Of a stretch of 64,000 nucleotides of DNA, positions 30,001 through 36,000 are shown one piece after another. Source of the DNA: Escherichia coli (lineage in GTDB: Bacteria > Pseudomonadota > Gammaproteobacteria > Enterobacterales > Enterobacteriaceae). The stretch lies in assembly GCF_048403405.1 (NCBI RefSeq), contig NZ_CP183129.1; one strand, written 5' to 3'. Each line of letters begins with the position of its first letter. The stretch's first letter is position 1. The position numbers were made by a program.

Positions 30001-33000
30001 CCTGAAGCCATGGCGTACGTACTGTTACGTCCGCTGCTTGATGATGTGCCGGAGGATGAACTGTGCGGCGTAGCGCCCGGAAGAGTATTGCCGGTATCAG
30101 AGCAATGGCATCCACTGTTAATTGAGGCGTTAACCAGCATTCCAAAACTCGAAGCCGGAGACTCCGTCTGGTGGCACTGCGACGTCATCCATTCCGTTGC
30201 CCCCGTTGAAAATCAACAGGGTTGGGGCAACGTGATGTACATTCCTGCGGCACCGATGTGCGAGAAAAATCTTGCCTACGCGCACAAGGTGAAGGCCGCA
30301 CTGGAAAAAGGCGCATCGCCGGGCGACTTCCCGCGCGAGGACTATGAAACAAACTGGGAAGGACGCTTTACGCTTGCCGACCTCAACATTCACGGTAAGC
30401 GAGCGTTGGGAATCGACAGCTGAGTGTCGTACAGCCCTTCCCGTTCCACGGCGGTGTTCCCTTTTCCTGGGCGAACCCGCCGCACTGACTCCCGCACCGC
30501 CAATCGTCCGTGCAGCAGCAGCGAGCCCACCGGAGCATCCGGGCGAATCAGCCGCTGTTGCAACATTTGCACCGCTTCATTGCCTAGCTCATCGCGTGGC
30601 ACATGCACAGCCGTCAGGGGAACATCCTCGATTGCCGCAAGGTTAAAGCCGTCGATACTCATCACCGAGACATCCTGTGGTACGCGCAGACCACGACGAT
30701 GTAGCGCATTTACCGTTCCCGCCGCCATAAAATCCCCGCCGACCAGAAACGCCGTCGGCAACGTCTTGCCATTGGCGGCATCCAGCCACGCTCCGACCTT
30801 TTCTTCCGCTTCTTTAGCGCTAAAACTGCTGATATTCAGCAAATGACGGTCATGGTGAAAGGCCAGATTATGCTGACGCCATGATTCTTTAATCCCTGCA
30901 AACCGCTGCTCCATAGTGTAGCGGCGCAGGCACATCACATTCATCACCTCCCGGTGACCCATTTCAAACAGATAGCGGGCGGCGAACGCGCCAATTAACC
31001 GATGGTCCGGCGCAATCGCCGGGAGGCGCATTCGTTCATCACGGCAGTTGATCAGCACACAAGGCTTAGCGAGATCGGCGGCCAGATCATGGATGTGCGG
31101 ATCGTCAATCCCCAGCAGGATCGCCGCCTGCGTATCTGCTTCATTCATCCGCGAGAGAAATAGCGCGGGATCGCTGTCAAACTCCTCCAGCGCGCAGTAA
31201 CGCAGCCGCACTTCATGCGGCGATAACGCTTTGCTGATGCTCTGGATCACACGGTAATAAAAGATATCAGATCGTTGGTCAAAAGCGCGTTGCGGCGCGA
31301 AAATAATCAGGTTATTCAGCAACATACGACCTGCTGCCATGCCATCCATCACGCCCAACTCACGCGCGCAGGCCAGCACCTGTTCGCGAGCGCGTGCACT
31401 GGTATTCGCTTTGCCAGCCAGCACCCGCGAAACCGTACTCGGCGATAGCCCGGTACGTGCGGCGATATCGGCGATTTTCAGCTTCTTGTCCATTTTGTGA
31501 TCTGCCTCTAATTCGGAAATGACAGAATTTTCATGAGCAAAAAAGCCCATTCTGTCTGGCATTAAATCCATTTCAGTAATGTATATCAGTCACTCATGGA
31601 AAAACGTGCACAAAACCCGCTTTCTTTCGCTTTTAGGGTCTCTTACTGTGAATTGGTAGAACAACTTCCATACAAAAATAATGGAAAAATGAACAATAAA
31701 GACTTTATTTATCAAAAAGTTAAAAGTGGTGTGACAACTCCATTCTGACGTTGCCGCACAAACCCTATACCATTCTGTGGAGTGCATATGAGTCAGGGTA
31801 TCAATAACGATATGACTGCCAGTAAACCGCGCCATATCGTCAAAAATCTGCGTTGGTGGATACTGGTCCTTTTTTTGCTCGGTGTTACTGTCAACTACAT
31901 CACGCGTAACTCGCTGGGTATTCTCGCCCCCGAACTGAAAAGCAGCCTGGGGATTACCACCGAACAATATTCCTGGATTGTAGGTGCTTTCCAGCTCGCC
32001 TATACCCTATTCCAACCGTTGTGTGGATGGCTGATTGACGTCATTGGCCTCAAACTGGGCTTTATGATCTGCGCGGGACTGTGGGCGCTGGCCTGTCTGA
32101 TGCATGCGGGGGCGGGAAACTGGGTACATCTGGCGCTGTTGCGCTTCTTTATGGGCGGTGCGGAAGCCGCGGCAACCCCAGCAAACGCCAAAACCATCGG
32201 TGAATGGTTTCCAAAATCAGAACGCCCGATCGCCGCAGGCTGGGCAGGCGTCGGTTTTTCCATCGGTGCCATGCTGGCCCCACCGATTATCTATTTTGCC
32301 CACGCTTCATTCGGCTGGCAGGGTGCATTTATGTTCACTGGCATCCTGGCGATGCTGTGGGTGGTGCTGTGGTGGGCGTTCTATCACAACCCGGATAAGC
32401 ATCCTAACCTCAGCAAAGCCGAACTGGACTTTATCCGCCAGGATAACGAAGCGCCCCCTGTCAAGTTACCCTTTCTGACCGCACTGAAAACCGTAGGCAA
32501 AAATAAACGCTTTTACGGTATCGCTATCCCGGCCTTTATGGCAGAACCGGCGTGGGCGGTGATGAGTTTCTGGGTTCCGCTATACCTGTCCAAAACCTAT
32601 GGCATGGACCTGAAGCAGATCGCATTATTCGCCTGGTTGCCGTTCCTCGCCGCTGATCTTGGCAGTATTGCCAGCGGCTATCTGACCAAACTTTACACCC
32701 GCCTGTTTGGGCTGAGTCGTGTGAACTCCGTTGTCGCATCATCGGTCAGTGGCGCATTCCTGATGGTTTCGCTGGCGGTGATGGCCTTTACCAATAACCC
32801 GTATATCGCCATCGTCCTTATTTCCATCGGCGGCTTCGGTCACCAGATCATCTCCTGCATGCTGAGCGCACTGGTGGTGGAATCCTTCGACAAAGGTCAG
32901 ATGGCCACTGTTAACGGCATGCGCGGTTCTGCCGCGTGGATCGCAAGTTTCCTGTTCTCCCTGATTATCGGGGTTACCGCTGACAAAATCGGCTTTAACC

Positions 33001-36000
33001 CCCTGTTTATCGCCATGGGCTTCTTTGACCTGATTGGCGCTTTCTTCCTGGTCACCTTTATTGCTGAACGTCGCGCAAAACGCGCCTGAGAGTGGATGTA
33101 AACATGAAAACGCTGAAAAACTGGACCCTGCACAAACAGTCTGCCCACCACGTTGAACTGCTGGTCGATGGCCAGCATATCCTGTGCCTGTACGTGCTGG
33201 AAGAAAATCTGTTCCGCGTGCTGTTAAAACGCAAAGGCGAGCTGGCGCTGGATCGCACCTGGAGCATTGCTCCGGCGCAGGATGTGCCATGGGAAGGGCG
33301 CAGCCGCGAAGATCTCAGCGGCTTTAGCCTGCCCGCGTGGACATTGATCCAGCACGACGACACCGTGGTTATCGCCACCGAGTCACTGCGTGCAACCGTT
33401 CACCAGCCGCTGTGGCTGGAGTGGCACTATCGTAACAACGAAGGCGAATGGCTGCCGTTGGTGAATGACCGTCCGACTAGCGCTTATCTGCTGAATGCCC
33501 ACGGCGATGGCGTGGCACACTATCAGAGCCGTCGTAAAGATGAACGCTTTTATGGCCTCGGAGATAAAGCCGGCGACCTGCAACGCAACGGTAAACGTTA
33601 CGAGATGCGTAACCTCGACGCGATGGGCTACAACGCCGTTAGTACTGACCCGCTGTACAAACACATTCCATTCACCATCACCCGCCGCGATGACATTAGC
33701 TTCGGCCTGTTTTATGACAACCTCAGCAGCTGCTGGCTGGATCTGGGCAACGAGATCGACAACTACCACACCGCCTATCGCCGCTGGCAGGCGGAAGCGG
33801 GTGATATCGACTACTACCTGTTTACCGGCGAACGCGTACTTGATATCACCAAATCCTTCGTACGCCTGACCGGAAAAACCCTGTTCGGACCGAAATGGAG
33901 CCTGGGCTACAGCGGTTCAACTATGCACTACACCGATGCGCCGGACGCACAAAATCAGTTGATGAACTTTATCCGCCTGTGTGAAGAACATGCAATTCCC
34001 TGCGATTCGTTCCAGCTCTCTTCCGGTTATACCTCAATTAACGGCAAGCGCTATGTGTTCAACTGGAATTACGACAAAGTGCCGCAGCCGAAAGTGATGA
34101 GCCAGGCATTTCACAATGCTGGTTTGCACTTGGCCGCCAATATCAAGCCGTGCCTGTTGCAGGATCACCCACGCTATAACGAAGTGGCAGAAAGAGGACT
34201 GTTCATCCGTGATTCAGAAACAGATGAACCAGAACGTTCCAGCTTCTGGGATGACGAAGGTTCTAACCTCGACTTTACTAATCCGCAGACCATCCAGTGG
34301 TGGCAGGAAGGCGTGACCACACAGCTTCTGGAGATGGGTATCGACTCCACCTGGAACGACAACAACGAATTCGAAGTATGGGACGGTGAAGCACGCTGTC
34401 ACGGCTTTGGTCAGACGATCGCGATCAAACATATTCGCCCGGTGATGCCACTGCTGATGATGCGAGCCTCGATGGAAGCCCAGCAACGTTTCGCTCCGGA
34501 AAAACGTCCGTACTTGATCTCCCGCTCCGGCTGCGCGGGAATGCAGCGCTATGTGCAGACCTGGAGCGGCGATAACCGCACTAGCTGGGACACTCTGCGC
34601 TACAACACCCGCATGGGTCTGGGGATGAGCCTCTCCGGGCTGTATAACCTCGGTCACGACGTCGGCGGTTTCTCCGGTGATAAGCCGGACCCGGAACTGT
34701 TTGTACGCTGGGTACAAAACGGCGTGATGCATCCGCGCTTTACGATTCACTCGTGGAACGATGACCATACCGTAAACGAACCGTGGATGTATCCGGGCGT
34801 CACTCCGGCGATCCGCAGCGCTATTGAGTTGCGCTATCGCCTGCTGCCCTACTTTTATACCCTGATGTGGCAGGCATACGCCGATGATGAACCAATGCTG
34901 CGTCCGACTTTCCTTGACCACGAGCACGACGTTCAGACTTTTGAAGAGTGTGATGACTTCCTGCTTGGTCGCGATATTTTGGTTGCCAGCGTCGTAGAGC
35001 AAGGCGAGCGCCAGCGCCGTGTATGGCTGCCAGATAACGAAACTGGCTGGTACGATTTCTACAACGGCGAATGGTTCAGTGGCGGTCAGTGGATCACCCT
35101 CGACGCACCGCTGGAGAAACTGCCGCTGATGGTGCGTGCCGGGGCTGGTCTACCGCTCAGCAAACGCATCACCTATGTGAGCGCAGAACAAGACGATACC
35201 CGCGAACTGAAACTGTTCCCGCTGAAAGGTGTGGGCACAACGTCCGGCCTGCTGTTTGAAGACGATGGCGAAAGCTGGGGCTACCAAACTGGTAATGCGC
35301 TTTGGGTGGAATGGGAAATGGTTTGCGATGGGGCGACCATCAACCTGAAAGTCAACGCGCGCGGGGATTATCGACCTGCATGGAGTGCACTGAAAGTGTC
35401 ATTACCAGTGGAAGAAAAACGCACGCTGCTGGTCAATGGTGTTGAAGGGAGTGAATGGATGCGTTAAATCATTACCGGGGCCGGGAGGCGACTGCGCCTT
35501 ACCCGGTCCAGCCATCGAATCCTTTACCTCAGTATTTCACGCTGCAGGAAGGCAGCAAACCTGTAAACCCCGGGAGCTTAAATAAGTAAGTGACCGGGGT
35601 GAACAGGTGAAGCCAATGCATCTGCCGCATGAAAGACGGCGGGAAATTAACCGTCGATCCCTTTACTACGCAGGTAATCTTCGTAATTACCGCTAAAGTC
35701 GATCACGCGTTCCGGGGTGATTTCCAGAATTCGGGTCGCCAGGGAGCTTACAAACTCACGGTCGTGAGACACAAAGATCAGCGTGCCCTGATACAGTTCC
35801 AGCGCCATGTTCAGCGACTCAATAGATTCCATATCCAGGTGGTTGGTCGGTTCGTCCATGATCAGAATGTTCGGCTTCTGCATCATTAACTTACCAAACA
35901 GCATCCGCCCTTTTTCTCCACCGGAAAGCACTTTCGCTGGCTTTTTGATGTCGTCCTGGCTGAACAGCAAACGACCGAGAATGCTGCGTACCGCCTGCTC

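Follow-up and report, generated by a model that had tools for sequence, protein, structure and literature searches.

We describe a three-gene cassette of Escherichia coli that likely imports an acidic alpha-glycoside, from which an enzyme of glycoside hydrolase family 31 (GH31) would release D-glucuronate for the Ashwell pathway. The cassette lies in a 64,000-nucleotide stretch of contig NZ_CP183129.1 (assembly GCF_048403405.1), called the window below, and consists of three open reading frames (ORFs) between the convergent genes ybiU and ybiT. ORF calling and RefSeq annotation agree with an earlier sequence-only reading of the window, which had described a LacI-type gene divergent from a two-gene operon. 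The stop of the transporter gene (33089) and the ATG of the GH31 gene (33104) are separated by 14 nt, as that reading had counted. The RefSeq labels are generic: LacI family regulator, MFS transporter and glycoside hydrolase family 31 protein.

30390-31493, minus strand: LacI-family repressor gene (ORF, Pfam, RefSeq); 367 residues from the ATG at 31493, beginning MDKKLKIADIA...
31788-33089, plus strand: ExuT-like transporter gene of the major facilitator superfamily (MFS), 433 residues; assigned by ExuT homology
33104-35467, plus strand: GH31 alpha-glycosidase gene, 787 residues; assigned by Pfam and mapped catalytic residues

In the proposed mechanism, the ExuT-like proton symporter would import a small anionic alpha-glycoside, and the cytoplasmic retaining GH31 enzyme (D419/D490) would hydrolyse it to free D-glucuronate, as the genomic context suggests. 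The core enzymes UxaC, UxuB, UxuA, KdgK and Eda would consume the glucuronate. The local LacI repressor and probably ExuR/UxuR would gate expression, judging from conservation. The substrate, the direction of transport and the effectors of the regulators are predicted here. The sequence-only reading had proposed an acidic alpha-glycoside locus, which is now backed by carboxylate-type transporters, glucuronate genes beside orthologues, and UxuR-type operator-like boxes upstream. That glucuronate is the glycon, which would make the GH31 enzyme an alpha-D-glucuronidase, is close to an even call. With less than even confidence, we extend this assignment to the 'LSSGY/NIKP/WNDNNE' subfamily of GH31, whose members may be unrecognised retaining alpha-D-glucuronidases with ExuT-like, tripartite ATP-independent periplasmic (TRAP) or ATP-binding cassette (ABC) importers.

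Glucuronate genes around orthologous cassettes

Eighty-five related loci were compared, 80 from a scan of 185,579 species genomes (GH31 56-99% identical) and five from look-ups. Their flanking ORFs were clustered, and recurrent families were annotated with Pfam and NCBIfam. The transporter encoded directly upstream of GH31 is an ExuT-like MFS protein in 63 of the 85 loci (Enterobacterales, Pseudomonas, Aeromonas) and a TRAP transporter, DctPQM, in 18 (Vibrio, Psychromonas, Marinomonas, Pasteurellaceae, Alphaproteobacteria). The remaining four have other arrangements, including locus L088, where a CUT1 ABC transporter stands beside a GntR-uxaC-uxuB-GH31 operon. A LacI-type gene divergent from the transporter gene is present in 47 of the 85 loci. 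Glucuronate-pathway genes lie at most six genes away in 28 loci (16 of the 18 with TRAP, 8 of the 63 with MFS and all four others).

The neighbour families identified by Pfam are UxaC, UxuA, KdgK, Eda and a GntR/FCD regulator. Outside the LacI-type loci, the neighbouring genes are uxaC, uxuB or a mannonate oxidoreductase gene, uxuA or ManD, kdgK, eda and the gene of an ExuR/UxuR-like regulator. In Pantoea and Erwinia, an exuR-like-uxaC-(uxuB)-uxuA operon divergent from the MFS-GH31 pair stands in place of the LacI gene. The genes represent the glucuronate and not the galacturonate branch, because the fructuronate reductase (763-803 bits, cut-off 603) and the D-mannonate oxidoreductase of the short-chain dehydrogenase/reductase (SDR) type (445 bits, cut-off 281) exceed their NCBIfam cut-offs. 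No UxaA or UxaB was seen in any examined locus. The TRAP binding protein is nearest (1e-65 to 1e-72) to the solved hexuronate binders 4N91 and 4MHF and the 4N15 template. 4N91 binds D-glucuronate, and 4MHF binds D-glucuronate and D-galacturonate (PMC7660916).

In marine loci of Vibrio and Alphaproteobacteria, the gene of a cytoplasmic GH2 enzyme of about 604 residues adjoins the TRAP-GH31-uxuB-uxaC genes, with TRAP as the only importer (L068, L069, L072, L079, L083, L084, L089, L091 and L093; about 5-7 kb in each locus). The best NCBIfam match of the GH2 enzyme is beta-glucuronidase, under the cut-off, and the protein contains an N-x-K motif. The presence of GH2 and GH31 enzymes with a single importer suggests that these clusters handle glucuronides of both anomers.

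The glucuronate link extends to more distant GH31 proteins. In a metagenome scan seeded with other clades, about 45 of 80 loci were informative beyond the enterobacterial orthologues. GH31 proteins of 42-53% identity stand beside UxaC with a mannonate oxidoreductase and a LarA-like protein, beside UxaC-UxuB-KdgK with an enolase-superfamily (ManD-like) dehydratase, and beside TRAP-UxaC-UxuA or an ExuT-like MFS transporter. Since distant relatives repeat it, the link is seen with several variants of the pathway, with three to four transporter families and in bacteria of several classes. Some members of about 39-45% identity are accompanied by CUT1 ABC or glycoside-pentoside-hexuronide (GPH) transporters, a PIG-L deacetylase and a protein of about 650 residues, or have uninformative neighbours.

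Several individual loci have further features. The Pasteurellaceae loci L074-L077, L082 and L092 are arranged as uxaC-SDR-kdgK-dctP / dctQM-GH31-uxuR-uxuA, and their carriers are Haemophilus haemolyticus, Haemophilus sp. oral taxon 851, Aggregatibacter, Rodentibacter, Cricetibacter and Pasteurella bettyae. A related cluster of H. influenzae Rd, of the L-gulonate pathway, presumably has a Zn-dehydrogenase at the GH31 position. The MFS-GH31 pairs of Pseudomonas and of a 48%-identical relative (L013) are flanked by the gene of a TonB-dependent receptor or porin (L042, 6230-8272; L046, 4062-6530; L013, 12488-13675), which hints that the substrate needs facilitated passage through the outer membrane.

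In a sister clade (L100, 7399-12481; L096, 8001-14345; L111; L115), the GH31 enzyme is paired with a protein of about 610-650 residues that has no Pfam match or a weak match to GDE_C only, often together with a PIG-L deacetylase and CUT1 ABC or GPH transporters. The pair is followed in L111 and L115 by UxaC, a mannonate oxidoreductase and a LarA-like gene, possibly of a hydroxyacid epimerase. These loci look like an uncharacterised pathway for an oligosaccharide containing N-acetylhexosamine and glucuronate. In L102 (575-5964), the genes after a 38%-identical member encode a 2-hydroxyacid dehydrogenase, a PfkB kinase and a DeoC/LacD-type aldolase, an arrangement reminiscent of sulfo-Embden-Meyerhof-Parnas (sulfo-EMP; yihV/yihT-like) or tagatose-6-phosphate genes.

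The GH31 enzyme and its active-site pocket

The GH31 protein is composed of a TIM-barrel, an N-terminal domain, and proximal and distal C-terminal beta domains. Its four Pfam domains all score above their cut-offs (PF01055, 297 bits against 23.5; PF13802; PF21365; PF17137). The motifs WNDNNE (417-422), HDVGGF (518-523) and IPCDSFQLSSGYTSINGKRYVFNWN are present. The nucleophile is D419 of WNDNNE and the acid/base is D490 of TWSGDN, aligned with D416/D482 of YicI and D405/D472 of YihQ. Both residues are invariant in 38 subfamily sequences, and the alignment with glucosidase II gives an equal spacing between them. The sequence-only reading had placed the nucleophile correctly, whereas HDVGGF, its acid/base motif, is a conserved GH31 block. 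It had also remarked that the region before the catalytic core departs from classical signatures; this region, IPCDSFQLSSGYTSINGKRYVFNWN, is that of the remodelled beta3 segment. The N-terminus has no hydrophobic signal sequence, and the enzyme is therefore predicted to be cytoplasmic.

The nearest solved structures are endoplasmic reticulum (ER) glucosidase II (6.6e-80) and FjDex31A; YicI (3e-36) and YihQ (1.6e-31) are distant, and none of the solved structures searched comes from this subfamily. The enzyme shares with ER glucosidase II, FjDex31A and MalA the domain architecture, the nucleophile motif WNDxNE, the acid/base motif WxGDN, and the equivalents of Arg468 and His549. It differs from them by 'LSSGY' instead of 'LDIEH/DIDY', 'NIKP' instead of 'xxDP', and 'PRFTIH' instead of 'PFxRxH'. 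The subfamily signature is made up of 'LSSGY' for beta3 'xDIDY/LDIEH', 'NIKP' for beta4 'xxDP', 'WNDNNE' and 'PRFTIHSWN', and the subfamily comprises more than 100 clusters at 50% identity in a search of 1.84 billion representatives.

These three relatives are neutral alpha-glucosidases, and homologues of the enzyme are named 'alpha-glucosidase' in sources. The cassette could thus be an ordinary one for a neutral alpha-glucoside or alpha-xyloside such as nigerose, kojibiose or isomaltose, with an MFS transporter that has drifted and uronate neighbours that are incidental. The sugar-type LacI regulator and the lack of an adjacent uronate gene in the Enterobacteriaceae cassette would suit this explanation, as would the reported ability of ExuT to carry glucose when activated (PMC6989600). 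We nevertheless regard it as very unlikely. The link to glucuronate is repeated in several bacterial classes, with four variants of the pathway and with three transporter families that are unrelated to one another, and UxuR boxes are enriched about 30-fold upstream. All NCBIfam equivalog cut-offs for alpha-glucosidases and alpha-xylosidases are missed by wide margins (MalA model NF040948, 305.8 against 800; YicI-type alpha-xylosidase model NF007940, 229.6 against 606). The enzyme thus does not fall into a characterised alpha-glucosidase or alpha-xylosidase clade, a placement that would have spoken against the sequence-only reading. The canonical beta3 Asp of the neutral alpha-glucosidases, which binds O4/O6, is replaced by S306, and by S, G or A across the subfamily.

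The cassette resembles yicJI of E. coli in being a two-gene operon of a transporter and a GH31 enzyme (YicI, subfamily GH31_3). It is unlike yicJI in that the yicJI transporter is of the GPH family and in that the bulky C307/F308/W345 of YicI, which exclude C6, correspond to S307/G308/N346. 

A closer functional counterpart is yihOPQ, in which a cytoplasmic GH31 enzyme acts on an imported anionic alpha-glycoside and feeds a dedicated route, as we propose here. The sulfonate-binding residues of YihQ are reportedly R301, W304 and Y508, together with Q288; their positions were confirmed in the sequence of K-12. Of these, R301 has its counterpart in the invariant R316, and both enzymes have a neutral residue at the position of the beta3 Asp (Q288 in YihQ, S306 here). 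W304 corresponds to a gap or F319 and Y508 to F523, and identity over the catalytic domain is 28%. The analogy with YihQ drawn in the sequence-only reading therefore holds as a functional likeness and not as membership of the sulfoquinovosidases (GH31_13), since only one of the three sulfonate-binding residues is present. The systems also differ in the transporter (predicted to be of the anion:cation symporter (ACS) family of MFS, or TRAP, against GPH) and in the neighbours of orthologues, which are glucuronate genes against sulfoglycolysis genes.

A module for alpha-galacturonides of pectin oligomers, with an alpha-galacturonidase acting on digalacturonate, or for sulfoquinovosides, with a second type of sulfoquinovosidase, is highly improbable. 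UxaC and ExuT also serve galacturonate, many carriers are plant-associated (Pantoea, Erwinia, Serratia, Rahnella), R316 aligns with the sulfonate-binding R301, and one distant member has the sulfo-EMP-like neighbours PfkB kinase and DeoC/LacD-type aldolase. Against such a module, the neighbours are UxuA or ManD with fructuronate reductase, and UxaA and UxaB were absent from the loci examined. We rejected the sulfoquinovosidase assignment on residues (W304 and Y508 lost) and on context: the window annotation shows no sulfoglycolysis genes near the cassette, and E. coli already has yihQ.

Mapped onto YicI and YihQ, the -1 subsite looks canonical on the O2/O3 side and remodelled and more positive on the C4/C6 side. 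The conserved O2/O3-binding and catalytic residues are R468, D490, H549 and D419. On the opposite side, S306, S307/G308/N346 and R316 are joined by an invariant K348 in place of the canonical beta4 Asp, and the net charge change is +2. The glycon position of glucuronate is favoured for three reasons. The changes of the subfamily are found at the C6 side of subsite -1, where they make the pocket more positive; the association with glucuronate genes is not confined to one clade, even as the transporters and partner enzymes change; and the beta-glucuronidase-like GH2 enzymes that share a single importer with GH31 suggest glucuronides of both anomers.

Glucuronate could instead be the aglycon, which we consider rather unlikely. 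The GH31 enzyme would then remove a neutral alpha-linked sugar (glucose, xylose, galactose, glucosamine or N-acetylglucosamine) from O-2, O-3 or O-4 of a reducing-end glucuronate, for example from hexose- or N-acetylhexosamine-alpha-1,4-glucuronate of heparosan, heparan or the head groups of plant glycosyl inositol phosphoryl ceramides (GIPC), and the transporter would recognise the reducing-end uronate. The glucuronate-gene context fits this arrangement equally, and hexuronate carriers that recognise a free uronate ring suit a reducing-end glucuronate. Related clades pair GH31 with a PIG-L deacetylase and the glycosidase-like protein of about 650 residues, which suggests N-acetylglucosamine oligosaccharides, and the marine GH2 genes would suit polymers of alternating beta-glucuronate and alpha-hexose. 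R169, specific to the orthogroup and near Asp172 of an N-domain loop, could bind an aglycon carboxylate. Conversely, the largest departures from other GH31 enzymes lie on the C4/C6 side of the -1 pocket and not in the +1 site, and the canonical O2/O3-binding residues speak against a 2-acetamido glycon. The TRAP binding proteins of the hexuronate clade would also have to hold a disaccharide of about 356 Da, a large ligand for them.

Orthogroup-specific positions, defined as at least 97% conserved in the orthogroup and at most 25% in the rest of the subfamily, include E167, R169, N170, W426, R492 and H606. R492, beside the acid/base, is shared with ordinary alpha-glucosidases, which counts against its use as a mark of the aglycon arrangement. 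As a test between glycon and aglycon, the list of these residues does not discriminate and was set aside.

If glucuronate is the glycon, the cassette would resemble the aldouronate systems of GH67, GH115 and GH4 (e.g. Geobacillus aguEFG-aguA) in the intracellular release of alpha-linked D-glucuronate and its coupling to uronate metabolism. Unlike those enzymes, to which it has no sequence relationship, the GH31 enzyme would have the classical retaining Asp/Asp mechanism; GH67 and GH115 are inverting, and GH4 is NAD-dependent. Pfam detects GH31 domains only, and any alpha-glucuronidase activity would be a functional likeness to these families and not membership.

Transport, regulation and candidate substrates

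The MFS transporter is 43% identical to ExuT of K-12 over 414 of 433 residues (E 4e-120), so that the likeness to ExuT noticed by eye extends over the whole length. Its best NCBIfam model is TIGR00893 (2A0114, D-galactonate transporter family), with 267 bits, under the cut-off of 395. The nearest solved structure is that of the galactonate/H+ symporter DgoT (1e-38). An Arg of the 'TRN' motif in transmembrane helix 1 is common to the transporter and ExuT, and we assume from DgoT that it takes part in carboxylate binding. The protein is predicted to belong to the ExuT clade of the anion:cation symporter family (TC 2.A.1.14) and to import an acidic glycoside. It clusters with ExuT and not with carriers of neutral sugars.

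The LacI-family protein has the N-terminal helix-turn-helix (HTH) and the periplasmic-binding-protein-like effector domain of the LacI/GalR family, with matches above the cut-off to PF00356 (HTH), PF13377 (Peripla_BP_3) and PF00532 (Peripla_BP_1). It reaches the cut-off of no NCBIfam equivalog. The ORF has three candidate starts, at 31571 (longest), 31550 (RefSeq) and 31493 (ATG). The ATG at 31493 is most likely the start, as the match to the Pfam HTH sets in only at residue 33 of the longest ORF and the sequence upstream holds a conserved, non-coding palindrome.

An alignment of the repressor-transporter intergenic region from 30 loci (13 Enterobacteriaceae, 11 Serratia/Rahnella/Hafnia and 6 Pantoea/Pseudomonas) contains four conserved elements, O1, O2, U1 and U2.

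31520-31533, unstranded: O1, LacI-type operator-like box TGACAGAATTTTCA upstream of the repressor gene; conserved block, predicted function
31597-31610, unstranded: O2, LacI-type operator-like box TGGAAAAACGTGCA; conserved in all three aligned groups, predicted function
31650-31667, unstranded: U1, ExuR/UxuR-type (GntR/FadR-type) operator-like box GAATTGGTAGAACAACTT; 14 of 18 positions match the UxuR site
31653-31682, plus strand: sigma-70 promoter-like site of the MFS-GH31 operon, TTGGTA-18 nt-AATAAT; 9 of 12 consensus positions, spanning the repeat arm ttccat
31725-31739, unstranded: U2, weak GntR/FadR-type box-like element AGTGGTGTGACAACT; conserved block, similar to K-12 exuT-uxaC sequence

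O1 and O2 share the pattern TGNAA-N4-TTNCA, and the LacI-family repressor probably controls expression through these two predicted boxes. In other genera the counterpart of O1 is the perfect palindrome ATGAAAAATTTTTCAT, and O1 is out of frame with the long LacI ORF. O2 reads TGAAAGTTTTTGCA elsewhere. Its left half is the atggaaaaa sequence (31596-31604) in which the sequence-only reading had seen a possible operator sequence. The other operator proposed there, the palindrome ttccat-N9-atggaa, has both arms in place (31666-31671 and 31681-31686) and is at chance level: the intergenic region holds three such 6-nt repeats where 1.8 are expected, a number reached or exceeded in 31% of shuffled sequences. 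Its right arm is kept in the closest relatives only, and we rejected it as an operator.

ExuR/UxuR probably act through the predicted UxuR-like box U1, which overlaps the -35 element of the promoter-like site. The E. coli UxuR site has the sequence AAATTGGTATACCAATTT (PMC8092373). U1 matches it at 14 of 18 positions, a level of at most four mismatches found in 10 of 1442 random windows, and is the sole match to the core pattern with at most two mismatches in the window. Better copies are found at the equivalent position in Serratia (e.g. ATTGGTACACCAAT), Hafnia, Pantoea, Erwinia and the TRAP loci. Upstream of the transporter gene, 42 of 77 regions carry a UxuR-type site with at most five mismatches; among 1442 random windows the number is 23 (1.6%), which makes an enrichment of about 30-fold. 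U2 resembles AAGTTGTATGACAAGTT of the K-12 exuT-uxaC intergenic region, and its conserved block in Enterobacteriaceae promoters is GGTGTGACA(A/C)C. Sigma-70-like sites are no more numerous in the intergenic region than expected by chance, and the site at 31653-31682 is singled out by its plausible position.

The proposed arrangement is similar to uidABC (gus), in which a glucuronide is imported and hydrolysed in the cytoplasm and glucuronate passes to UxaC-UxuB-UxuA. Both systems would combine a local repressor with UxuR-type control, represented here by a predicted box; uid is known to be controlled by UxuR. They differ in the enzyme (retaining GH31 alpha-glycosidase against GH2 beta-glucuronidase), the carrier (ExuT paralogue against the GPH carrier UidB) and the regulator (LacI-type against the TetR-type UidR).

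With glucuronate as the glycon, candidate substrates are alpha-glucuronosyl-glycerol, alpha-glucuronosyl-inositol and unmethylated aldobiouronic acid. Candidate sources are glucuronosyl-diacylglycerol lipids of plants, algae and bacteria, the glucuronate-alpha-inositol of plant and fungal GIPC, and unmethylated aldouronates. We found no hydrolase for alpha-glucuronosyl-glycerol or alpha-glucuronosyl-inositol in the literature.

Several points weigh against the release of glucuronate from an imported alpha-glycoside. To our knowledge, none of the small alpha-glucuronides abundant in nature has been established as a nutrient of enteric bacteria. The solved hexuronate TRAP binders enclose monosaccharides, so the TRAP or ExuT-like carriers might import free glucuronate only; where the GH31 enzyme would then obtain its substrate has no ready explanation. 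Because ExuT is reported to carry glucose when activated, homology to it is no strict proof that the substrate is anionic. There is no adjacent uronate gene in the cassettes of E. coli and most Enterobacteriaceae, and a good UxuR box is present in only 17 of 45 LacI-type loci, this window included. The pocket argument rests on alignment and on general knowledge of GH31 structures. The S306/S307/K348 signature is subfamily-wide and occurs also beside CUT1 ABC or GPH transporters with no visible uronate genes; therefore, it need not encode carboxylate recognition. We found no paper on the locus, its clade or a GH31 alpha-glucuronidase; an earlier in-silico mention is possible. An experimental characterisation of the locus, which by the sequence-only reading would have removed the novelty, did not turn up among publications either. 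A GH31 enzyme in a study of lactulose in Salmonella (PMC13304739) could not be tied to this clade.

If glucuronate is released from an alpha-glycoside, the activity would be one not previously described for GH31 and most likely the first Asp/Asp retaining alpha-glucuronidase, and a large uncharacterised subfamily would gain a function. The harvest of glucuronate from alpha-glucuronosyl head groups would mirror the YihQ sulfoquinovose pathway, with a carboxylate in place of the sulfonate, and be another entry into the hexuronate pathway, which matters when E. coli and Salmonella colonise the gut. It would account for a nutrient niche that differs between strains, the cassette being present in about 10% of E. 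coli and in most Klebsiella and Enterobacter. Alpha-linked glucuronate compounds would then be an overlooked and significant source of carbon in gut, oral, plant and marine environments. The present labels 'alpha-glucosidase' and 'MFS transporter' could give way to pathway-aware annotation.

Distribution and boundaries of the locus

Among 5426 complete genomes of E. coli, 575 (~10%) have the cassette. In the remaining genomes ybiU lies beside ybiT, in some with IS621 between them. The two genes are adjacent in K-12, as the sequence-only reading had stated, separated by 240 bp of REP-like (repetitive extragenic palindromic) DNA, in which comparison found no remnants of the cassette. Homology to K-12 stops at about 30411 and restarts at about 35652 of the window.

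The ybiU-cassette-ybiT order is also found in at least 12 other Enterobacteriaceae genera: Klebsiella, Enterobacter, Kluyvera, Leclercia, Phytobacter, Kosakonia, Scandinavium, Pluralibacter, Pseudocitrobacter, Lelliottia and Raoultella, as well as Salmonella enterica subsp. diarizonae. Most Klebsiella and Enterobacter have the cassette. The description of the cassette as inserted, given in the sequence-only reading, is therefore doubtful. Because the order recurs in these genera, an ancestral locus that most E. coli have lost is no less likely than an insertion. Horizontal insertion found no support, since the GC content of the cassette (0.54-0.59) is close to that of the flanks, inspection of the junctions revealed no mobile-element genes or repeats, and the site is filled in many genera.

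29158-30423, plus strand: ybiU (ORFs and RefSeq)
35559-35608, unstranded: imperfect inverted repeat with 22-nt arms, 77% complementary, and a 6-nt loop, between the stops of the GH31 gene and ybiT
35647-37242, minus strand: ybiT (ORFs and RefSeq)

The 3' end of the LacI gene and the stop of the convergent ybiU overlap by 34 nt (30390-30423). The last four ybiU codons differ from those of K-12 (ALGIDS* here, ALGMDV* in K-12), which places an indel breakpoint within the end of ybiU. The inverted repeat at 35559-35608 is possibly a bidirectional terminator or a REP-like element; the corresponding site of K-12 holds REP-like sequence.

An 8.2-kb query region is 100% identical in strain TUM14771, and the best match to it in 191 E. 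coli records is only 80-90% identical. The transposase of the IS110-like IS621 lies between ybiU and ybiT in several cassette-negative E. coli (e.g. NZ_CP025847.1 and NZ_CM141448.1), and ybiU is wholly missing from others, such as E2348/69.

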